A DNA stretch of 41,341 nt. It comes from a virus (taxonomy: Duplodnaviria; Heunggongvirae; Uroviricota; Caudoviricetes). Numbering within the stretch: position 1 is the first letter of the stretch; each line of letters begins with the position of its first letter. The stretch lies in the IMG/VR virus record IMGVR_UViG_2718217863_000002. One strand, 5' to 3'. Below, one piece after another: positions 8,719-39,721 of the stretch. Position numbers and translations under genes: made by a program. Below the pieces are notes generated by a model. That model did no database searches. It had not been told where the DNA came from and was given only the letters and a program-made list of their open reading frames with translations.

Positions 8719-11058
8719 CTAGCCCACCAGTTTCTGTAGGGCAGTAAGCCGATCGGTTATCAGTGAGGAAATACGCACAGGCCCCGCGTCCGCATTGAGG
8801 TGGATGCGGGACGGATTTGTATCCCCCTCGGTTAATAAAAAACTAGTGCTATTGAATTTTGTCCAGCCACAGTCAGCGTTAAGGTCTATTAGGGGGAATC
8901 CATATCGCAACGCCACGGCGCGTATGGCCGCTGCATAGTCAGAAACCCGCCCATAGCCATTTGTTTCACCGTCAACCCATGCCGCTGAACGTGGAGAATC
9001 ATAGTCCCCATTGAACGGCGTGGCCCACAGGATAGGTTTTGTTGGGGCCCGCGCCCGCAGTTTCTGAGCGATGATGTTCAGCGCGCCGTAAACGGTTGTA
9101 TTCACTGAGTCGGTGATACTTCCAATCGGAATATTTTGCGCCCAGTCGTTTGTTGCCCACGGACCGCAAATCCACGCCGCCGCCGATGTATCCAGAGCAT
9201 TGATTCGCACATCGTCGCACATGCTGATTTGCGTTGAGGAGCTATCCGGTTTGGCTATTTTCGAACCACCGACCCCGTGATTCAGAAAAGTGCAGCCCAG
9301 TTCTGCCGCGACAAGAGGTTGCCATTTGTTATAAGCAACGTTGCTGTCACCCATCACATCGATGACTTTTCCAGACCACGGACTGACCGTGCTACCACCG
9401 GGAACGACTACATATTTTTTGGCAATAATGGGGACGGCTATACGGGTGGTGATCCCGATTTTGGCGGTGCCGGAAGGAGGTGTTAGCTCGTAATCGGTGT
9501 AGTCCACCGATTCTGTAGTACCGTTCCCTTCGGTGCCGATAACCGTCCCGGCACTGTTCATATACACCGCGAGCGAAACTCCACTGCCGTTAACCCTCGC
9601 TGTGACTTTCCAGCGGTCTCCTGCTGTGTAATTAAAAATTGCACAGTCAAATGCAGCATTTGCCACCACACTGCCATCAGCACGGTTTATATATGCTCCT
9701 GAGGTAATCGTGACGTCGTGTTTAATAAAATCATAAACAAGAGAGTCCTCTATTGTTTGTACCCTGACATCCAGAGAATCGATCGATGCCAGTACTTTGG
9801 CCGTCTCAACGACAGCAAGTTTTTTAACAGCAATTTCCGCAGAATTACGACCCGTTATACCGATCTGTGTTGTCCCGGCAGGAACGTTAAGACGATAATT
9901 AGTATACTGCTGCGGGGTTGCCGTTCCCCGCCCTTCAACACCCAATACCATCCCGGCGCTGTTCATGTACACGGCCAGAGCAGTCGCCGATCCTGTCACA
10001 AGGGCTGTCACCAGCCAGCCATCCCCGTCGGAATGCGGAATGATTGCGCAGTTCAGCGCAGAGTTATCAGTGATGGCCCCTGTAGTTGGGTTGATAAATT
10101 TCCCGACTTGCCAGGCAGCTGCATAAGCATAACCAACAGAGATAGCTCCCTGGAGCGCATCGACGCGTGATGTTAACCCCGAAATACCGGATGATATGAC
10201 GGCTGACAGATAAGTTTTATCCGGCGTGGCGCGAACAAAATCAGGCTGAATAGCCCCCAACGCAGCAGCATAAGCACCGACCTTAAATATCCCTGCCGTA
10301 GTATTTTCAACCCGGATCCTGACGTAGGATGCGCCGGATGGAATGACATCTGTGATAACCGGCGTATTTATACCTGCGGCCAGAGCAAGCTGTGATTTAG
10401 ACGAAATAACAGCGCCAGCGGTGGACATCCAGAAAATATGGAACATAGCACCGGCATCCTGGAACCACGCCAGCACGGAAAAGGTTAACTTATCACCAAC
10501 CCTTACAGGCAGGCGGGCAAGGTCATAATATTTATCTGCAGACCATACGCCGGAATACTGTGCCACTGGAGTCGGTAACGAAATATTGGCATCAGTAGTG
10601 CTGAAGGTGATCACTGCTCCGCGATACCAGTCCCACGCACCGAATTTAGGATCATTTGCTGAATATTCATTCAGAGCATCAAACAGAATGTTCGCCCCGC
10701 GTAGCGAAGAATAAGATGGCATTTTCCGCCCGGTAGGCTGCAGCGTACCGGCGTTATTGATCACTTCTACAGCTAACGCGTTGTCATCCGGGCTACGGTA
10801 ATACGTGGTCGACCCCACCGGAATATTCGCGATATCCGCCTGCGCCGCTGCCAGCGTCTGGTATTGCTTACTGAGCGGGATCAGGTTCTGCCTGACCTCA
10901 TCGTTTTTCGCCATCATCTGGCGCCAGGTATCGAGTGGTTCACCGCCGCGGTCGTCAACCGTTCCGGCCGGACCGTTAACCAGCTCGTCAGCGCGCTTAA
11001 CGTTGTCCATGAATATTTCCGGCGTCGTCGTGCCCAGTGGCGGGTTAAGTTCGGCCAT
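8719..11058 (-). CDS. tail fibre / receptor-binding protein, variant A (in expression position after J)
   Basis: 779 aa; shared N-terminus MAELNPPLGTTTPEIF; C-terminal region with GDSN, GGS and ND motifs suggesting an SGNH-type hydrolase. Confidence 0.75.
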   Translation of the reverse strand: MAELNPPLGTTTPEIFMDNVKRADELVNGPAGTVDDRGGEPLDTWRQMMAKNDEVRQNLIPLSKQYQTLAAAQADIANIPVGSTTYYRSPDDNALAVEVINNAGTLQPTGRKMPSYSSLRGANILFDALNEYSANDPKFGAWDWYRGAVITFSTTDANISLPTPVAQYSGVWSADKYYDLARLPVRVGDKLTFSVLAWFQDAGAMFHIFWMSTAGAVISSKSQLALAAGINTPVITDVIPSGASYVRIRVENTTAGIFKVGAYAAALGAIQPDFVRATPDKTYLSAVISSGISGLTSRVDALQGAISVGYAYAAAWQVGKFINPTTGAITDNSALNCAIIPHSDGDGWLVTALVTGSATALAVYMNSAGMVLGVEGRGTATPQQYTNYRLNVPAGTTQIGITGRNSAEIAVKKLAVVETAKVLASIDSLDVRVQTIEDSLVYDFIKHDVTITSGAYINRADGSVVANAAFDCAIFNYTAGDRWKVTARVNGSGVSLAVYMNSAGTVIGTEGNGTTESVDYTDYELTPPSGTAKIGITTRIAVPIIAKKYVVVPGGSTVSPWSGKVIDVMGDSNVAYNKWQPLVAAELGCTFLNHGVGGSKIAKPDSSSTQISMCDDVRINALDTSAAAWICGPWATNDWAQNIPIGSITDSVNTTVYGALNIIAQKLRARAPTKPILWATPFNGDYDSPRSAAWVDGETNGYGRVSDYAAAIRAVALRYGFPLIDLNADCGWTKFNSTSFLLTEGDTNPSRIHLNADAGPVRISSLITDRLTALQKLVG

Positions 11059-11080
11059 GTTTTTTGCTCCAAAAAGAGGC

Positions 11081-11106
11081 TTCGCCCAAACGAGGGTTTG
11101 AGCGAA
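11081..11106. other. candidate 26-bp invertase crossover site (right), exact inverted copy of 5532-5557
   Basis: TTCGCCCAAACGAGGGTTTGAGCGAA is the exact reverse complement of 5532-5557; lies 22 nt upstream of the fibre A start, about 30 nt after the J stop. Confidence 0.45.
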
Positions 11107-11134
11107 AGAAAAGTTGAAAGGGATTTTTTTGGTA

Positions 11135-14100
11135 TTAAGCAGCGTCGCCGGGGTATGTGGCGTCGTCGTACTGGTAGAACGATTCGAGGTATTCTTTTGC
11201 GGTGACCTGGCAGGTTCCGTCAGACTGCGGGGCGATCTCCTCTACAATGGCGTCGTAGACGTGGCGCGTTGAGCCGCAGAACACCAGGCGGATCGGCTCG
11301 ATGGTTGCCGACGACAGGTCAACCCGCATGGGATCATCAAACTCGCTCAGGTGCGGGACTGACAGCTGAAAATCACCCACCCGGCTCGCCACCATCAGCC
11401 CGGATGCAGAGCCATCCTGATAGCGGATTAGCGCGCGGGGATTTTCGAAAGACCAGTCCAGCGGCTCCGTAACGGTGAACGTTGTCACGCCACCAGCCGT
11501 TGTCATCGCCTCCACCAGACAGGAAATTGTGTTGTTACCCGGAATATCATCCGTGAGCACAATGCGATCGCCCGTGTTGTAGCACAGCGCGTCCAGCTCG
11601 GTAGTGGTCTGGAACGTCACCCGCTGCTGCAGGTATTTCATCAGGCGACGCATGCCGATCTGGTAGGCGTGATCCTGATTCAGTACCCCATCGAGTTTGT
11701 AGTTCTCGATTTTCACCGGCGTGGGATTATCAGGCGTCCGGCATTTAACGGTCTCCTCCGCCCAGGTAGTCCCGTTGATGTATGTCACGTCGACGCCATC
11801 AAAATCATCGTCGGACGGTACGGTAAATCCGCTCTGCAGCTCCTCCACCATCTCATGCGGAGTGATCACGCCAGTCCAGGGCTTAATCCCCTCACGGTTG
11901 ACCGTCGCCAGGCCATCACTCAGCAGAAAACGTGACTTCCCGGCATTGGCTATCTTCTGCAGCATTTCCAGCGCTGAGATACTGTCGCCCGTGGCGAAAT
12001 CAAAATTTTCGCCCCGTGGCGTCCAGTACGCGGATTCCAGCGCGTTGATGGTGTCGACGTCCATCTCCAGCCCCAGCGAGTTCCCGACATGCAGCAGCGC
12101 CCCCGAAATGGTTCTGGCGGTTCCTGAGTCGTAGGCCCGCGTGGCCACAACGTTTACGCGGCGGTCCGACTGCGCCGCCAGCTTCCCACCCGTCTCAACG
12201 GTCACCGCCATCAGCGACACGCCGGGATAGGATGAAGGGCGCGTCAGCAGTCGCCCGCGCAGTGCCTGCCAGTACATCGAATCCCTGGCGTTGTTTGAGC
12301 CCTGCTCATTGCGCCGACGGCAGCGAACCTCTACCAGTCCCGGAGAACTGAGGGTGATCCGCTCAGTGAAACCTAACCCGTTGACGTTTTTCAGCGCATA
12401 CTCGCCCTGGTGACTCACCCACCCCGATCCGGAACCGTAGACGCGATACTGTATCTCCCACTCAACGTGGCGGATCCGTTTTTTGCCCTTACTGTCAAAG
12501 CCGCAAATACCGTTCGGGAAAGAGAAATTCACCTCGAACATATCGACGGTCTCATTTTCAGGGCAAACCAGGAACGGCCCCAGCCAGCTCAGCGTGTCGT
12601 TAAGACCAGTGGCCTCATAGTCGATCATCGTCCGGGCGGTGAATCCCGGCCATGACTCATCAACGGCACCGTTAACCAGGCGCGCCACCGTCGCCGTTGT
12701 GCCGTCGGTCGAGACAATGCGGTACTCATTCCCGCGGTGAGCAAGTGAAAGCCGTTGCACCCCCTCCGGCATGCCGGAAAAGGCCGTTCCCGTGGCGCTG
12801 TTATAGGCAAGCGTCACATTCGCCGTTACCGCCGGGCTGCCGCCGGTTGATGCCGTGCCGGAGGTGTAAACCGGGGCATCACCGAAAACAGCTGCAGGCA
12901 GCGAAGAGGACGTGATCTCCCCACCCGCGAACGGACTGGCCGACTCGGTTATCAGTACGGTGCCGCCGTTGTCCTGCGCAACCAGGCCGGCGCCAGTGAG
13001 TCCCTCGGTGATGGCCGCCAGCAGTCCCGACATCGAGACGTAGTTAGCCACCAGCGACACCGGGTAGGTAACTCCCTGCCAGGTGATCGTGAACGTGCTG
13101 GAGCTGGTCGAAAAATCGTAGGTGGTCGGGGCCGCACTGGCCTGGACTTTTGCCACACTCCCCCCGGTGCCGGGCACTGCAGCCTGACCGGGGGTATATG
13201 ACGCGATAAACAGATCGTAATCGACAGAGTTAAACCCCAGCGTCACCGGCATTCCAACCACCGGCGCGATCTCCGTCAGCAGCGGGCTTGCGATAACGCT
13301 GTATCCGGCCGCCGTGGTGATCTGGTAGTTCGCCTGGGCTTTCAGTTCGACCACGGCGCCAGCGACCCAGCTGGGCGGCAGTGAGTTATCGTTCTCGTCA
13401 TTATCGTCATCATCATCCGTATCCAGCCCGGTAAACGTTACGCTCGAACCGGATACGGTCATGCTGTCTGCGATAATATCGTCGGCATCCGGCGACGTCT
13501 GGGCCATATCCAGCCCGGTACCGGATGATGTCCCTCCGACCTCAGTACTATTGACCCAGTTTTCACTGCGCTCATCGCCGGAAACGTCCGCGCCTGGTGG
13601 AAAATAGGTGATGTTGAAACCCGGCAGCGTTGAAGCTGGCGTACTGCCTACCCTGATATCGCCAGTGGTATAAATCAGTTCACCGACACCGAGACACAGC
13701 AGCATCTGGACGCGCATTTTCGTAGGATCGGCGGCATCGAACCGGGTAACGGGCTGGACCACATAATCCGGGTAGATACGCACCCGGCCAAACACCTCAC
13801 GAATGGCATCACCGAGTTTTGCGGTGTTGGCCCGCGCCGGGTTCAGGTCGAGACTCCGCCCTGTGGATGAGGTATAGCCGCCCGTATCGATGCGGCTCAT
13901 CAAAACAAGCGAATAGGCTGCAGCGGCAACGGAGATACCGACGCCGATCCACGCGATTGTGGCGGCCTCCAGCCCGAAGGGGACCGGATAAAGCCGTACA
14001 TCACTATCAGGGCGGATCACACAGGTAGCCCACTCGCCTGGCGGAATTGACTGACCCTCAACCTCAACGGTCAGCGGTGGGACATCCCGATCGGTATAGT

Positions 14101-34614: not shown

Positions 34615-35424
34615 TTAAAGGATCGCGACAACGTCTTTTGCGACTTCCCGCGTACTGCTTTTGCAGGAAATCGAACGGCGCGCTTTGATGAATTGCAGGT
34701 TAAAACCATGCTCCCGGTACAGGTCGAGAACCTTCGGTGCAGATGAGTTAGAAATCACTACCCGAGCGCCACGGTGAAAGGCAGATACGCATTGCTTCGC
34801 CAGGTCCACCTGGTTCTCCCAGCTAAAACCACCAGCGGCATAGGCGGTGAATCCGGTTGTTCCCGGCATCGGTTCGTAAGGCGGATCGCAGTAAACCACA
34901 TCCCCTTTCCCGGCCAGGCTGATTGTCCGGCGGTAATCAGCGGTCATGAAGACGCAGTTATGCGCCATAGCGGCGAAGGATTTCATTTCGACCAGCGGGT
35001 AATACGGCGCCTTGTAGCCTCCCCATCCCACATTGAACTTGTTCGCCTGGTTGTAGCGCATCAGGCCATTGAAACAATGCCGGTTGAGATACAGGAATGC
35101 AGCTGCGCGTTCAGTAGCATCCAGCGTCTGAGCGTTGAACTCGGAACGGATCAGCTCATAGCCATCTGGTGACCGCATGTGCTCGAACATCCAGCGGGCC
35201 TTCAATTCCACTTCATCCGGCACGACCGCTAACATCTGATACAGATTAATCAGGTCCGGGTTAACGTCCGCCAGCAGATAATCTGCGTGCTTATCGCTGT
35301 TCAGGAATACCGACCCACCACCAACGAATGGCTCTATCAGGCGTTTCCCTGCCGGGATATGCACGAACAGGTCAGCCAGCTGGGTATACTTTCCACCTGC
35401 CCATTTCAGAAATGGCTTGCTCAT
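34615..35424 (-). CDS. Dam-family DNA N6-adenine methyltransferase
   Basis: FVGGGSV (AdoMet site) and DPPY catalytic motif; 269 aa. Confidence 0.85.
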   Translation of the reverse strand: MSKPFLKWAGGKYTQLADLFVHIPAGKRLIEPFVGGGSVFLNSDKHADYLLADVNPDLINLYQMLAVVPDEVELKARWMFEHMRSPDGYELIRSEFNAQTLDATERAAAFLYLNRHCFNGLMRYNQANKFNVGWGGYKAPYYPLVEMKSFAAMAHNCVFMTADYRRTISLAGKGDVVYCDPPYEPMPGTTGFTAYAAGGFSWENQVDLAKQCVSAFHRGARVVISNSSAPKVLDLYREHGFNLQFIKARRSISCKSSTREVAKDVVAIL

Positions 35425-36335
35425 GAACGGAACCCCGCTGGCACTGAATAATCCACGTCGGAATAACTGGACTTGAACGCCGTGTCTTGTTTAACCCACT
35501 TTCCGCCAGTCCAGGCTGGGCGCCCGGCTGCTTCCCATTTTTTGGCCTTGTCGAAATACTCGACGCAGTTCTCGGGAGCAAACAGCGTTTTGGGCCGCAG
35601 GTAGTCGCTCATCTTCGGATCCTGAGCCCATTTCTCGTTCAGGTAGTCAACCACCAGCATCAGGTCTTTAGGGCTGTAATCTTCGGCCAGGCGTCCCCGG
35701 ATATAACCCAGCGTCGTTTTGGTTCGTCCCCCCTTGCCATAGGTCGAGTTGGTTACCCGATTGAAATGATCCAGAACGAGTTCTGCCGGATCGGTCTGGT
35801 CTGGTTGCAGCGCAACCGGACAAGAGTCTTTACCTGTAATCTCTGTAGTACTCTCTGTTGTATTCTCTGTAAGATCATCGTGCCAATTTGACCTGATGAC
35901 AGCGGTTCGTTTTGACCCGGTGGAGCGTTTCACAATGACCTCTTCCATCGTGTCATTTTGACCTGATGGAACGGCGCATTTTGACTTCTTCGATTTGGTC
36001 ACTTTGACCTCATCTAAAAGCTCACTCTCGTAGTTGATCGTGTAGTAGTTCGTCATGTCGCGTTGGGACTTGTTCAGCTGCTCAACTTTAAGCACGCCCA
36101 GGCTCTTCAGCCGGGTGAAGGTGCGCTTCAGAGTGGATTCAGACCAGAACGGGAATTGCTCCAGCCATTGCTCTGTCGTGTTGTAGATCCAGCGTACGCC
36201 GTCACGCTCCAGCCCTGAGTTAGTCTCCTGCAGCCAGTAGTTAAGCTGCTGCAGCGCAATGGCTTCATTCAGGCCTATGCTGTACGCAAGGTCAGGATTG
36301 ATGACTATCGGCCTTGATGGCATTAACAGGCTCAT
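35421..36335 (-). CDS. replication initiation protein (lambda O-like role) with internal origin iterons
   Basis: 304 aa; N-terminal HTH-like domain, central low-complexity linker encoded by the iterons, conserved C-terminal domain. Confidence 0.65.
   Translation of the reverse strand: MSLLMPSRPIVINPDLAYSIGLNEAIALQQLNYWLQETNSGLERDGVRWIYNTTEQWLEQFPFWSESTLKRTFTRLKSLGVLKVEQLNKSQRDMTNYYTINYESELLDEVKVTKSKKSKCAVPSGQNDTMEEVIVKRSTGSKRTAVIRSNWHDDLTENTTESTTEITGKDSCPVALQPDQTDPAELVLDHFNRVTNSTYGKGGRTKTTLGYIRGRLAEDYSPKDLMLVVDYLNEKWAQDPKMSDYLRPKTLFAPENCVEYFDKAKKWEAAGRPAWTGGKWVKQDTAFKSSYSDVDYSVPAGFRS
35887..36009. repeat. origin iterons: six TTTGACC-type repeats at ~23-bp spacing
   Basis: TTTGACC (or AATGACC / TTTGACT) at 35887, 35911, 35934, 35957, 35979, 36003; preceded by a (CTCTGT)n-like tract. 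Confidence 0.6.
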
Positions 36336-36504
36336 AAGACCCCTCTATTTCCCTGAATTTTCGTCTGAACTGCTCGAGGGGGCTGAAACACTCGTGCTTA
36401 TACCCTTCGCGCAGGTATATAACGCGCTGTGTCTGGGGCTCCCAGCGTATGACCCTGACCGGGACACCGTAGTGATCTCTGAACCATCGGTTAAGTTCTC
36501 GCAT
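36292..36504 (-). CDS. possible small protein upstream of the replication gene
   Basis: ORF track, 70 aa; overlaps the replication gene start and a competing ORF. Confidence 0.25.
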   Translation of the reverse strand: MRELNRWFRDHYGVPVRVIRWEPQTQRVIYLREGYKHECFSPLEQFRRKFREIEGSYEPVNAIKADSHQS

Positions 36505-36741
36505 ACTTTCTCCGCCTGGCCGTTAAAGTCCCCTACCACCCACTGAGCAAACTGGTAGCAGACAGGTTCGAACCCGCCTGGTACTCTTACCCCATACACG
36601 AACTGCACCGGTCCTGCTCCACCAGGAACTGGCCGCGCTACAAGTTGCGACCTGCGGTACTGTGTTGATAAACTGTTCATGCGTTAGTAATCTCCACTGA
36701 TAACGACACGCCACGACGCCAGGAGCTGCAACTCGCTGGCG

Positions 36742-37203
36742 TCACTTCTTTTTGCGTGAAAATAACGTGATAATTGCGGCAATCTCTTCTTCCCGAGCTG
36801 CCAGATGGCGGCGGTGATGCACCATGATTTCTTCGGCCTCGTGCCTTTCAATAACGCCATCTTCAAGTGCCTGTTCGATAATCTGATCAACCTGTCCCCT
36901 GGCGGCAGAGGTACGCATTGCCCGGCTAAACAAGTCCACGCGATCCAGCTCTTCCAGGTGCGGAACATCCACCAGCAAAGCACCACGACGGCGGGCGAAG
37001 TAGTCTGCCAGTAGTGACGTGTTGGAAATGTCTTCCATCGCTTCCAGCTCCGATACTTCAAAAAATCGACAGCCGTTTTTCTCGTAGAGGTTGTTGTTGA
37101 ACTGCGTCACGGTCATTCCCAGTGCGCCAGCCATTGCTTCGCGCCCACCTGGATATGCTTTGCACATCGCTTTGACGGCTTCTTTGAGGTTTGGCTCTAC
37201 CAT
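36742..37203 (-). CDS. CII-like regulatory protein
   Basis: ATG at 37203 (MVEPNLKEAVKAMCKAYPGGREAMAGALGMTVTQFNN..., HTH-like); directly downstream of cro. Confidence 0.5.
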   Translation of the reverse strand: MVEPNLKEAVKAMCKAYPGGREAMAGALGMTVTQFNNNLYEKNGCRFFEVSELEAMEDISNTSLLADYFARRRGALLVDVPHLEELDRVDLFSRAMRTSAARGQVDQIIEQALEDGVIERHEAEEIMVHHRRHLAAREEEIAAIITLFSRKKK

Positions 37204-37237
37204 ATTGATTTTCCTTTTGTAGTTATCGAATAACCGC

Positions 37238-37480
37238 TTAAGCAGTACGATTATTTGCACTTGGTACGTCATCTGTTTGATAGCGACTTGGGTACAAAAT
37301 GTGTAATTCGCTTATTTCTCCTCTAAAGAACTTGGCTAATCTCTCCGCCAGTTCGACAGATGGGACTTGCTCGCATCTTTCAATGCGGCTCAACGTTGCA
37401 GGATCTACCTGTACCCCGGTTGCAACGTGCAATAAGGTCATGCCATGCGATTTTCGCAATTTTCTTAATGGTGATTGCAT
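37238..37480 (-). CDS. cro: Cro-like HTH repressor
   Basis: 80 aa; HTH GMTLLHVATGVQVDPATLSRIERCEQVP; divergent from the CI gene. Confidence 0.65.
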   Translation of the reverse strand: MQSPLRKLRKSHGMTLLHVATGVQVDPATLSRIERCEQVPSVELAERLAKFFRGEISELHILYPSRYQTDDVPSANNRTA

Positions 37481-37495
37481 AACGCCTCCTATTTT

Positions 37496-37556
37496 TGCGT
37501 ATTACGCATGCTATTCCACGCTAGCGAATTGCGCAAGTTGCTTTGCACGAAACGCA
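37496..37556. promoter_or_regulatory. right operator region: three TGCG-N5-CGCA-type sites between cro and cI
   Basis: TGCGTATTACGCA (37496-37508), AGCGAATTGCGCA (37523-37535), TGCACGAAACGCA (37544-37556). Confidence 0.5.
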
Positions 37557-37577
37557 AAAACAACATGTAATGAGTGA

Positions 37578-38273
37578 ATGAAAATAGGATCTCGCATACG
37601 ACAACTTCGCTTAGCGAAGAACATTAAAATCGCAGAGCTTGCAGAAGCTGTGGGCGTTGATGCTGCCAATATTTCCAGGCTTGAAACTGGTAAACAAAAG
37701 CAGTTTTCAGAACAGACACTTAACCGACTTGCTCAAGCTTTAAGCGTAAGTGTACCTGACCTATTTACCTCTGACGAAAATGATACTACTGTACATATAA
37801 ACAGTAAAAAATATGCATCTCCCGTAAAGGATGTGGATGTATACAGAGTCGAGGTACTTGATGTGAGCGCAAGCGCCGGGGCAGGACATATACACGGTAG
37901 TGACGTCATAGATGTCATTCATGCTATCGAGTTCAGCAATGATCAGGCATTGGCAATGTTTGGTGGCAGGACTCCATCTGGAGTAAAGGTCATCAACGTT
38001 CGCGGTGATAGCATGGCCTCAACGATTGAGCCTGGCGACCTAATCTTTGTGGACGTAACTATCAATGAGTTCGATGGGGATGGGATTTACGTCTTTGGTT
38101 TTGATGGAAAAGTTTATGTTAAACGCCTGCAGATGATACCAGACCAACTGCTAGTCATCTCTGATAACCCTCGTTATAGAGAATGGAATATAACTAAAGA
38201 GAATGAACACAGATTCTATATCTATGGAAAGGTTTTAATAAGCCAGTCTCAGTCCTTTAAACGGCATGGATAG
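37578..38273 (+). CDS. cI: CI-type repressor (N-terminal HTH, C-terminal S24 LexA-like autopeptidase)
   Basis: HTH IKIAELAEAVGVDAANISRLETGK; C-terminal GDSM with Ser and downstream Lys (VKRL); 231 aa. Confidence 0.85.
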   Translation: MKIGSRIRQLRLAKNIKIAELAEAVGVDAANISRLETGKQKQFSEQTLNRLAQALSVSVPDLFTSDENDTTVHINSKKYASPVKDVDVYRVEVLDVSASAGAGHIHGSDVIDVIHAIEFSNDQALAMFGGRTPSGVKVINVRGDSMASTIEPGDLIFVDVTINEFDGDGIYVFGFDGKVYVKRLQMIPDQLLVISDNPRYREWNITKENEHRFYIYGKVLISQSQSFKRHG

Positions 38274-38936: not shown

Positions 38937-39721
38937 TGGCTAAAGACTCAAAGCTGGTATATGGCGCGAGTGGCAAAACGAACGTTTTGACGTTCGAACC
39001 TGAAAACCTGCACCTGGTTACCGACAAAACGCACCCGCTTTACGATGAGCGTATCCACCTGCCTATCAGCGAGGCAATGGTGCTGAACATCATGGACCAG
39101 GGCGTTCTTGAGCCGATTATCGTCTGGAAAGACCCGGAGACAGGGCTGTCTTGTGTGGTTGATGGTCGCCAGCGTGTGCGACATACACTGGAAGCCAACA
39201 AGCGTCTGTCGAAAGAGGGCAAAGAACCGTTACTGGTTCCGGCAGTCGCTAAACGTGGCTCTGCCGTTCGCATGGCGCAGGCGATGGTAAGTGCTAACGA
39301 AATCCGCCAGGCTGATACGCCGCTGGGCCGAGCAAAGAAAATGGCTGATGCGCTGGACCGCGGGCACGACGAGGACGATTTATCGCTGATGTTTGGCGTG
39401 AGTGTTCAGACAGTACGTGCAACGCTGTCGCTGCTGGATGCCACCCAGGCTGTCCGCGATGCAGTGGAATCTGGAACTGTCACCGTTACCCAGGCGCGTC
39501 AGCTTGGTGCGCTCCCACCTGAAGAGCAGCGTGCCAAAGTGTCAGCAATCGAGCTGGCGACAGCTGGTACAACCGGCCATGAAAAAGCCCGGCGTCAGCG
39601 TAAGATTCTCGGTGAGGAAAAGCCGCGTCTGAAAACCCGCAAAGAAATTACTAAAGCCCTGGAATCTGCCGAGGGTGAGTATGCAAGCGCACTCCGTTGG
39701 GTGCTTGGGGAGTCCGTATGA
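38936..39721 (+). CDS. ParB-like nuclease domain protein
   Basis: 261 aa; IIVWKDPETGLSCVVDGRQRVRH resembles the ParB N-terminal box. Confidence 0.6.
   Translation: MAKDSKLVYGASGKTNVLTFEPENLHLVTDKTHPLYDERIHLPISEAMVLNIMDQGVLEPIIVWKDPETGLSCVVDGRQRVRHTLEANKRLSKEGKEPLLVPAVAKRGSAVRMAQAMVSANEIRQADTPLGRAKKMADALDRGHDEDDLSLMFGVSVQTVRATLSLLDATQAVRDAVESGTVTVTQARQLGALPPEEQRAKVSAIELATAGTTGHEKARRQRKILGEEKPRLKTRKEITKALESAEGEYASALRWVLGESV

Follow-up and report, generated by a model that had tools for sequence, protein, structure and literature searches.

Does the gene at positions 35421–36335 of a Klebsiella prophage carry the origin of replication used by its own product? The question is raised by a stretch of DNA of 41,341 bp, referred to below as the window (IMG/VR record IMGVR_UViG_2718217863_000002, a virus of the Caudoviricetes). 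A sequence-only reading of it had noticed six TTTGACC-type repeats next to a CTCTGT-rich tract within a putative replication initiator gene and had compared this arrangement with the origin inside the O gene of phage lambda. Our analysis indicates that region 35795–36009 is very probably the vegetative replication origin of a lambdoid Klebsiella prophage, lying in the linker-coding middle of the gene for its own initiator. As an origin, the region was unannotated before and belongs to a well-known kind, represented by the intragenic origins of lambda (ori), pSK41 (RepA) and SPP1 (oriL). The anatomy of the region, its non-randomness, its conservation at the DNA level, and the co-variation of repeat flanks were established here, as were the identity of the gene and its match in position with ori-lambda.

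Anatomy of the region and identity of its gene

Six imperfect 13-bp palindromes of the GGTCA-AAA-TGACC type (GGTCA-AAW-TGACC) spanned positions 35881–36009 (Table 1); the plus strand contained GTGCCAATTTGACCTGATGACAGCGGTTCGTTTTGACCCGGTGGAGCGTTTCACAATGACCTCTTCCATCGTGTCATTTTGACCTGATGGAACGGCGCATTTTGACTTCTTCGATTTGGTCACTTTGACC at 35880–36010. The heptamer TTTGACC was exact at 35887, 35911, 35957, and 36003, with AATGACC at 35934 and TTTGACT at 35980. The six copies and their spacing of 23–24 bp were as described in the sequence-only reading except for the copy placed there at 35979, which is the start of TTTTGACT, the TTTGACT beginning at 35980. Anchored on the G of TGAC, the copies were located at 35890, 35914, 35937, 35960, 35983, and 36006, with a spacing of 24, 23, 23, 23, and 23 bp.

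In the window TTTGACC occurred seven times on the plus strand and twice on the other; four of the seven were found within these 123 bp (Poisson P ~8e-9). A chain of six TGAC at steps of 22–24 bp was present in none of 300 dinucleotide-preserving shuffles of the window, both strands counted: the longest shuffled chain had three members (5 of 300), and usually there were two. Tandem Repeats Finder (TRF) missed the 23-bp array, the copies being only ~70% alike outside the core, while anchored and seeded methods revealed it. The cores occupied all three reading frames and encoded unrelated peptides; therefore, the repeat is a feature of the DNA, and a protein-level repeat is excluded. No DnaA boxes were found in the origin, the nearest site with one mismatch being at 36663. 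A structured RNA at the origin was ruled out, as Rfam gave no match in 35000–37800. A second, weak 12-bp tandem (36030–36053, GTAGTTGATCGT GTAGTAGTTCGT, TRF score 34) was noticed on the other side of the array, at the end of the region coding for the N-terminal domain; it probably arose by chance.

The CTCTGT-rich tract, reported earlier at 35841–35870, was present and slightly wider, consisting of three 12-bp units in exact register; the family consensus of the unit was ACAGAGAnTACw. Its G+C content was 36% versus 49.8% for the window, and 67% of its bases on the coding strand were purines. By nearest-neighbour energy, it was the least stable 36-mer of the gene (−41.6 versus a window mean of −49.6 kcal/mol). 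The AT-rich unwinding region, whose presence nearby had been suggested for checking, was thus found in the sense of a low-stability segment, although this segment was not simply AT-rich, being a sequence-specific repeat of 12-mers. We propose that in the origin the tract serves for DNA unwinding or helicase entry. It is followed by a small GC-rich inverted repeat.

The 35421–36335 gene is, judging by profile matches, that of a phage replication initiator, as had been supposed. Its product matched phrog_428 (“replication initiation protein”) over its full length (residues 5–303, E 2.4e-55), and its N-terminal 165 residues also matched several PHROGs with the labels “replication initiation O-like” and “DnaD-like helicase loader”; the former label is a naming convention and does not mean membership in the lambda O family. 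The C-terminal part contained Pfam PF09524 (Phg_2220_C; 62.9 bits against a curated cut-off of 27), while the match to NCBIfam TIGR02220 was under its cut-off (46.6 versus 66.65 bits). The gene order around it (cI, cro, cII-like, initiator) agreed with this identity. In the AlphaFold model, the N-terminal part had the order H-H-E-E-H-H-E-E (residues 14–100) with a predicted local distance difference test score (pLDDT) of 55–77, residues 109–179 were unstructured (pLDDT <50, block means mostly ~30), and the C-terminal domain (residues 183–271) was confident and helical. The unstructured part, encoded by 35799–36011, coincided with the six repeats, the CTCTGT tract, and the GC-rich inverted repeat, which bears out the location of the repeats in the linker-coding part of the gene.

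Intragenic iteron origins of the lambda, RepA_N, and SPP1 kind form a functional class, not a protein family. The following features of this class were found: at least three regular repeats about two helical turns apart inside the initiator open reading frame (ORF); their location in a linker with folded domains on both sides (AlphaFold); an adjacent easily melted region, namely the tract; and repeats that in relatives were conserved or co-varied with sub-families of the N-terminal domain.

Table 1. Positions of the initiator gene, its domains, and the repeat elements in the window (amino acids, aa; nucleotides, nt).
Feature	Position	Strand	Details
Replication initiator gene	35421..36335	-	304 aa; based on ORF, Pfam, PHROG and AlphaFold
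N-terminal winged-helix domain	36012-36335		aa ~1-108; AlphaFold
Disordered linker	35799-36011		aa 109-179; AlphaFold, pLDDT <50
Helical C-terminal domain	35523-35789		aa 183-271; Phg_2220_C at aa 187-261 (Pfam)
Iteron 1 (gene order), GGTCAAAGTGACC	35997..36009	-	flanks perfectly palindromic; gene nt 327, codon phase 2, EVKVT
Iteron 2, AGTCAAAATGCGC	35974..35986	-	codon phase 1, KSKCA
Iteron 3, GGTCAAAATGACA	35951..35963	-	codon phase 0, GQNDT; bordered by outer inverted arms CCATC...GATGG
Iteron 4, GGTCATTGTGAAA	35928..35940	-	most degenerate; codon phase 2, EVIVK
Iteron 5, GGTCAAAACGAAC	35905..35917	-	codon phase 1, GSKRT
Iteron 6, GGTCAAATTGGCA	35881..35893	-	adjoins tract; codon phase 1, RSNWH
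Tract, three 12-bp units (gene sense) TACAGAGAATAC AACAGAGAGTAC TACAGAGATTAC	35836..35871	-	encode TENTTESTTEIT; TRF score 51
GC-rich inverted repeat	35795..35825	.	14-nt arms, 86% complementary, 3-nt loop; directly after tract in gene direction

The location of the origin of this prophage is useful for annotation, for work on phage-derived replicons of Klebsiella, and for the interpretation of induction data. The initiator gene was 98% identical to those of Klebsiella phages vB_VIPKPNMC05 and ST147-VIM1phi7.2. In public records it is named “transcriptional regulator”, “conserved phage C-terminal domain-containing protein”, “Primosomal protein I”, or “hypothetical protein”; the first two names are corrected by the present assignment.

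Conservation of the array and of the tract

The repeats were conserved in homologous phages. The array was found in register, with the same cores and period, in Escherichia coli phages mEp460 and HannyBb (N-terminal domain 76–81% identical) and in Providencia phage PSTCR8lys (59% identical). Distant homologues of the N-terminal domain had other palindromes in the same place and with the same period, in all cases followed by an ACAGAGA-type tract: GAGGGCAAATTGCCC in Erwinia phage PEp14, Pantoea phage AH07, Klebsiella phage SopranoGao, and Pseudomonas phages 8P and AF; GGACAAAATGGCCCGAC in Staphylococcus phage P954; GTGTCAAAATGAATCAA in Bacillus phage TP21-L; and CCTACCCAAAATGGGG in Stenotrophomonas phage QH16. 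Conservation averaged by phase within the close GGTCA class was uninformative, the whole region being 70–100% conserved.

A set of 187 unique genes was gathered by protein homology of the N-terminal domain alone. In 170 of them (91%), 3–7 copies of a 9-mer were present between the N-terminal domain and the tract, with intervals of 23 bp in 370 cases, 22 bp in 69, 24 bp in 64, and 45–47 bp in 80. Within this family the cores had the form NNN-CAAWnTG-NNN. In the four largest flank classes (GGT/ACC, GGG/CCC, GCT/AGC, and TAT/ATA), the commonest 3′ flank was the reverse complement of the 5′ flank; perfectly symmetric sites numbered 162, versus 66 expected under independent flanks, and the flank classes coincided with sub-families of the N-terminal domain. 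Such symmetric co-variation is the signature expected of a symmetric dimer reading the site, as for lambda O.

The tract started 18–21 nt after the last iteron core in most homologues. Stems of at least 6 bp within 60 nt after the tract were found in 134 of the 187 homologues and in 18 of 187 shuffled controls; this enrichment is weak evidence because the homologues are related to one another. At the junction of iterons and tract, the window has a GATC site (35872) with a dam gene next door; as a general feature, this site was ruled out, since it occurred in only 33 of the 187 homologues.

The tract was also searched for by itself. An IMG/VR scan with the exact pattern ACAGAGANTACNACAGAGANTAC (21 specified bases) gave at least 120 matches (loci L013–L132), and the counts in this paragraph are among the matches listed. 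In 117 of 120 the tract lay in the sense direction and in the same codon phase, at residue 135–200 of ORFs of ~260–400 aa. Of 63 non-redundant tract-bearing ORFs, 55 matched phrog_428; the C-terminal domains differed, with Phg_2220_C in 21 of the 63 and, in others, HNH (3), GntR (2), DnaT (1), and DnaB_2 (1). Among 98 unique loci, some 9-mer was present in a mean of 4.1 copies within 230 bp upstream of the tract, versus 2.1 downstream and 2.2 in shuffles; here too, 3–7 repeats with a period of 22–24 bp preceded the tract. The 9-mer differed by locus (GGTCAAAAT, GAGGGCAAA, GGGAAACCC, GACCCTCCC, CTACCCAAG, GGTATTACC, and others), and its spacing was 23 bp in 167 intervals, 24 bp in 34, and 46 bp in 33.

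BLAST of the tract against GenBank phages retrieved 99 records, with hosts including Acinetobacter, Klebsiella, Bacillus, Staphylococcus, E. coli, Burkholderia, Erwinia, Vibrio, Xanthomonas, Geobacillus, and Synechococcus. Among the matches listed, functionally named records were replication, DnaD-like, O-like, or primosomal proteins and a few transcriptional regulators. Matches on plasmids were mostly in genes for a “conserved phage C-terminal domain-containing protein”, chiefly of Bacillus, which suggests phage-derived plasmids. A scan of one genome per species with the tract pattern gave at least 120 matches (L373–L492) in Gamma-, Alpha-, and Deltaproteobacteria, many Firmicutes, Cyanobacteria, Chloroflexi, Gracilibacteria, Bacteroidota, Nitrospirae, and Fibrobacteres; among those listed, 108 of 120 were in the same codon phase, and upstream repeats were 21–24 bp apart. 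The tract also offers a simple DNA signature for phage origins, its 21 specified bases giving at least 120 exact matches in each of the two collections.

The O genes of Stx-converting phages had only 41 bp of DNA in common with the window gene; these lay at the tract (92.7% identity), which there adjoins different iterons of the TTTCCC/GGGAAA type. In the O gene of the Stx2a-converting phage Stx2_14040 (L003, 2040–2160), the palindromes GGTTTCCC and GGGAAAAC were observed beside four tract units, and a DnaB-type helicase gene followed the O gene. In this phage, therefore, the tract is used with another specificity and another helicase strategy.

Constraint on the tract was analyzed in the homology-selected set only (L133–L372), hence the test is not circular. 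At least one CAGAGA was found at nt 300–800 in 187 of 187 homologues and two or more in 162, neighbouring units being 12 nt apart in 246 intervals; another 16 intervals measured 11 nt, which puts those units out of frame. In the TExT motif of the linker, the first Thr was invariably encoded by ACA (333 of 333, compared with 22% in other parts of these genes) and Glu by GAG in 99.1% (49% elsewhere); the third codon was always AnT (N, I, S, or T), and the last Thr was ACA or ACT, almost never ACC or ACG. This bias held in gene classes of 28–38%, 38–50%, and >50% G+C (range 28% to 55%). The codon counts come from related sequences and are not independent events, yet synonymous sites elsewhere in the same genes were clearly not frozen. 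In a position weight matrix of 465 units, which read A C A G A G A n T A C w, position 8 varied freely. Eleven of the twelve positions are thus held at the level of nucleotides (or of the transcript), with the amino acid at the free position unconstrained. In low-GC (Firmicute-phage) genes, the free position was C in 77% of units, giving CAGAGACTAC, and in 4–13% elsewhere; host-specific recognition (e.g., a trinucleotide preference of primase) and simply shared ancestry are candidate explanations.

In the open-access literature, subscription journals not being covered, no description of an ACAGAGA/CAGAGA motif as an origin, iteron, or phage element was found; on phage DnaD-like initiators with intragenic repeats, the open-access literature gave only papers on lambda, Stx phages, and SPP1, and nothing on the present family. 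We suggest, tentatively and with somewhat less than even confidence, that the tract is a near-universal “second half” of such phage origins, acting as a sequence-specific unwinding signal or as a signal for helicase or primase entry. In this form the element would comprise 2–5 ACAGAGAnTACw units in a phase of 12 (sometimes 11) bp, placed 18–21 nt after iteron arrays of 21–24 bp period, and it would span initiators with different DNA-binding specificities and different C-terminal domains. Candidate readers of the tract are single-strand contacts of the initiator, a host factor common to all hosts, and an R-loop of the purine-rich transcript. Plasmid Rep proteins make single-strand contacts at 13-mers.

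The comparison shows one origin design in a very large number of phage initiators of broad phylogenetic spread: dimer-type palindromes about two helical turns apart, followed by the 12-bp-phased tract, all encoded within a disordered linker. The nucleotide-exact conservation of the tract, together with the iteron period of 21–24 bp, is the part most deserving attention. Origin melting and helicase entry are poorly understood even for lambda, and the tract provides a mutable target for the way in which phage origins melt and the host helicase or primase enters, as synonymous recoding spares the protein.

A search for non-coding copies of iterons plus tract yielded two loci, neither of them conclusive for a role at the DNA level. 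At L074 (IMG/VR 3300017658_000175, 11000–11300), four CGACAAAATGACGG-type iterons and the tract were present without a sequence coding for the N-terminal domain, just downstream of a tape-measure-like gene; this is probably a remnant and could be a detached copy of an origin. At L076, a stop codon stood just before the tract in a contig that looks frameshift-ridden.

Known intragenic origins, proposed mechanism, and alternative explanations

Within O, the lambda origin (39034–39160) comprises four iterons of 18 bp and an AT-rich segment of 38 bp (PMC3349717), and lambda O destabilises the AT-rich region (PMC7466680); the annotated iteron starts were 39034, 39054, 39078, and 39101. The window resembles it in several respects. 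In both, the origin (a probable one in the window) sits centrally in the initiator gene, where the linker between a DNA-binding N-terminal half and a recruiting C-terminal half is encoded. The sites are imperfect palindromes with an A-tract centre (TCCCTCAAAACGAGGGA in lambda), with starts 20–24 bp apart in lambda and 23–24 bp apart here. On the C-terminal side there is a low-stability segment, purine-rich on the coding strand, and then an inverted repeat; the window hairpin corresponds in relative position to the palindrome on the right of the lambda AT-rich region. The operon order cro, cII, initiator is also shared. In contrast to lambda, the window has six sites instead of four, a Phg_2220_C C-terminal domain, a dam gene in place of a P-like loader gene after the initiator, and three sequence-specific 12-mers (ACAGAGAnTACw) in place of the 38-bp AT-rich run.

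The comparison drawn earlier with the origin inside lambda O holds for anatomy and conservation, while the protein stands outside the lambda O family. The initiator had no match to Pfam PF04492 (Phage_rep_O) at E ≤ 0.01, and none of the 63 tract-bearing initiators matched it at E ≤ 0.001. The N-terminal domain had no detectable homology to lambda O, with no PF04492 match and an hhalign profile probability of 0.65%. Lambda is, thus, an analogue in design and not a demonstrated relative.

A natural hybrid links the two designs. Locus L026 (IMG/VR 2905380325_000008, 774–1865) encodes an N-terminal domain of the window type and contains GGTCAAAATG iterons and four tract units; after the tract come GATCATTCGTCGCAGAATTCTGGCGAATCCAGCGACCAGCC, matching lambda GATTATTCGTCAGAGAATTCTGGCGAATCCTCTGACCAGCC, and a C-terminal half 46% identical to residues 125–274 of lambda O. 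In the alignment, the L026 tract occupied the position of the lambda AT-rich region. This positional equivalence is the best available argument that the tract may be the unwinding or helicase-entry part, and the junction of the chimera at the tract may mark a point of module exchange. Similar natural chimeras were observed (L028, L067, L071, and L098 types).

Comparison of the predicted fold gave weak matches to initiators of another group with intragenic origins. The best Foldseek matches were RepA initiators of staphylococcal multiresistance plasmids (4pql, 4pt7, and the Rep–DNA complex 5kbj; probability 1.0, target TM-score 0.55, E 0.011–0.07), followed by generic winged-helix regulators, DnaB (5wtn), and ORC/Cdc6 winged helices. 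Sequence searches of PDB with the whole protein and with a profile of the N-terminal domain gave no match below E 0.27. In pSK41, four Rep boxes in the centre of the rep gene are bound by the N-terminal domain of Rep, the origin-encoded central domain acts as a linker that can be dispensed with, and DnaG is bound by the C-terminal domain; bending is aided by A+T tracts within the binding sites (PMC5703833). A similar division of labour is predicted for the window protein, with a winged-helix N-terminus for in-gene repeats, an origin-encoded linker, and a C-terminus directed to the primosome, as in RepA of pSK41 and pTZ2162. The window replicon differs in being a phage of a Gram-negative host, and its initiator had no match to Pfam RepA_N (PF06970). 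The ACAGAGA tract was found in one staphylococcal plasmid record only. Because this sole match sits in a gene annotated “conserved phage C-terminal domain-containing protein”, the tract appears to be absent from typical RepA_N plasmids. By analogy, the design would be common to lambda and to RepA_N plasmids, and membership in either protein family is not claimed.

At oriL of SPP1, gp38 binds direct repeats in its own gene 38 beside an AT-rich DNA-unwinding element (PMC6316719). Unlike the window, SPP1 has its origin in two copies, the second being oriR, and encodes a loader and a helicase of its own (gp39, gp40). The replisome-organizer or Rep family of lactococcal phages (Tuc2009, TP901-1; TIGR01714) is described as having a protein segment of low complexity that mirrors direct repeats in the DNA, which can serve as a phage origin. 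The window initiator matched neither PF09681 nor TIGR01714 at the thresholds used.

We infer binding, melting at the tract, and recruitment of host factors to proceed as follows. The initiator would be expressed from an early rightward-type operon (cro, cII-like, DUF4222, initiator), and dimers of its N-terminal winged-helix domain would bind the six 13-bp palindromes, 23 bp (~2.2 helical turns) apart. The bound dimers may wrap the DNA into a nucleoprotein complex comparable to the lambda O-some or to pSK41 RepA on its Rep boxes, and the resulting stress would open the neighbouring tract, the least stable segment, with its ACAGAGAnTACw units in a 12-bp phase. The initiator is not followed in the operon by a gene for a phage helicase or helicase loader; for this reason, the Phg_2220_C domain is proposed to recruit parts of the host primosome (DnaB–DnaC and/or DnaG). 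Operon transcription passing through the origin may help, as it does in lambda.

Several points weigh against the assignment of 35795–36009 as the origin. The helicase-recruitment step is drawn only from gene context and analogy. The tract is moderately and not extremely AT-rich, its stability being at the 5th percentile of the window, and it is less AT-rich than classical unwinding regions. The confidence of the N-terminal domain model was modest (pLDDT 55–77, shallow alignment), the E-values of the RepA matches were weak (≥0.011), and sequence comparison gave no detectable relation of the initiator to lambda O or to Pfam RepA_N. The comparative sets are not phylogenetically independent, and their counts overstate the number of independent observations. 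An origin annotation was absent from all related phage records examined.

Other explanations of the repeats were considered together with the evidence above. Initiator sites may serve mainly for control, i.e., autoregulation, a transcription roadblock, or titration and handcuffing as in iteron plasmids, with the start site elsewhere. The anatomy and conservation of the array are compatible with such a function; plasmid iterons and the extra iterons of Stx phages have regulatory roles, and in Stx origins only four of the six iterons were strongly bound in vitro (PMC7466680). However, the arrays are invariably paired with an unwinding-type tract at a fixed 18–21 nt, the positional equivalence to ori-lambda points to initiation, and no second array or second initiator was seen in the operon; we regard control with a distant start site as improbable, control and initiation not being mutually exclusive. 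Still further down in likelihood, and hardly credible, is a reading of the repeats and the tract as a low-complexity protein linker or a slippage-made tandem duplication with no function at the DNA level. The region does code for a linker that is disordered, the tract reads in frame as TExT repeats, and 117 of the 120 listed occurrences share the codon phase, yet the 23-bp period puts the cores in three frames with unrelated peptides, some tract units at 11-nt spacing are out of frame, and the codons of TExT (Thr ACA in 333 of 333, Glu GAG in 99%, third codon AnT) are the same across genes of 28% to 55% G+C. The least credible explanation is that the TTGACC motifs, all six copies of which lie on the antisense strand one position off the sigma-70 −35 consensus TTGACA, are −35 elements of antisense promoters in the gene, providing oop-like control. 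This was rejected for want of −10 partners: the promoter scan found no −35/−10 pair at any of the six copies. Neither was there an Rfam match, and the cores of distant homologues (GGGCAAATTGCCC, GTATCAAAATGATAC, and others) are not −35-like while their position and period are unchanged.

For the tract itself, a role as a recombination joint was weighed, i.e., as a short homology for shuffling the N-terminal-domain-plus-iteron module against C-terminal modules and not as an unwinding element. The tract lies exactly between the origin-specific N-terminal module and variable C-terminal ones (Phg_2220_C in 21 of the 63 listed ORFs, DnaT, DnaB_2, and lambda-O-like), the 41-bp stretch is all that the Stx phage O genes have in common with the window, and natural hybrids exist. 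As the whole explanation this is unlikely: the tract is conserved across hosts without frequent DNA exchange (Staphylococcus, Bacillus, Klebsiella, Pseudomonas, cyanobacteria, and Chloroflexi), and the presence of one free position in each 12-mer speaks for purifying selection at the remaining eleven and not for recent exchange. The joint and unwinding roles may coexist.

Gene neighbourhood of the initiator

The gene order around the initiator is that of a lambdoid early-right operon. A cI-type repressor gene (S24/helix-turn-helix, 37578–38273) was encoded on the plus strand, and a Cro-like helix-turn-helix gene (37238–37480), a CII (CP76)-like gene (36742–37272), a DUF4222 ORF, the initiator, a Dam methylase, RusA, and a DUF968/HNH protein were encoded in this order. 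The DUF4222 ORF (70 aa, 36292–36504) is on the same strand as the initiator and overlaps its 5′ end by 44 nt. The start of the Dam-type methylase gene (34615–35424) overlaps the stop codon of the initiator (ATGA). Adenine methylase genes were also found near the initiator in mEp460, HannyBb, PSTCR8lys, and PEp14.

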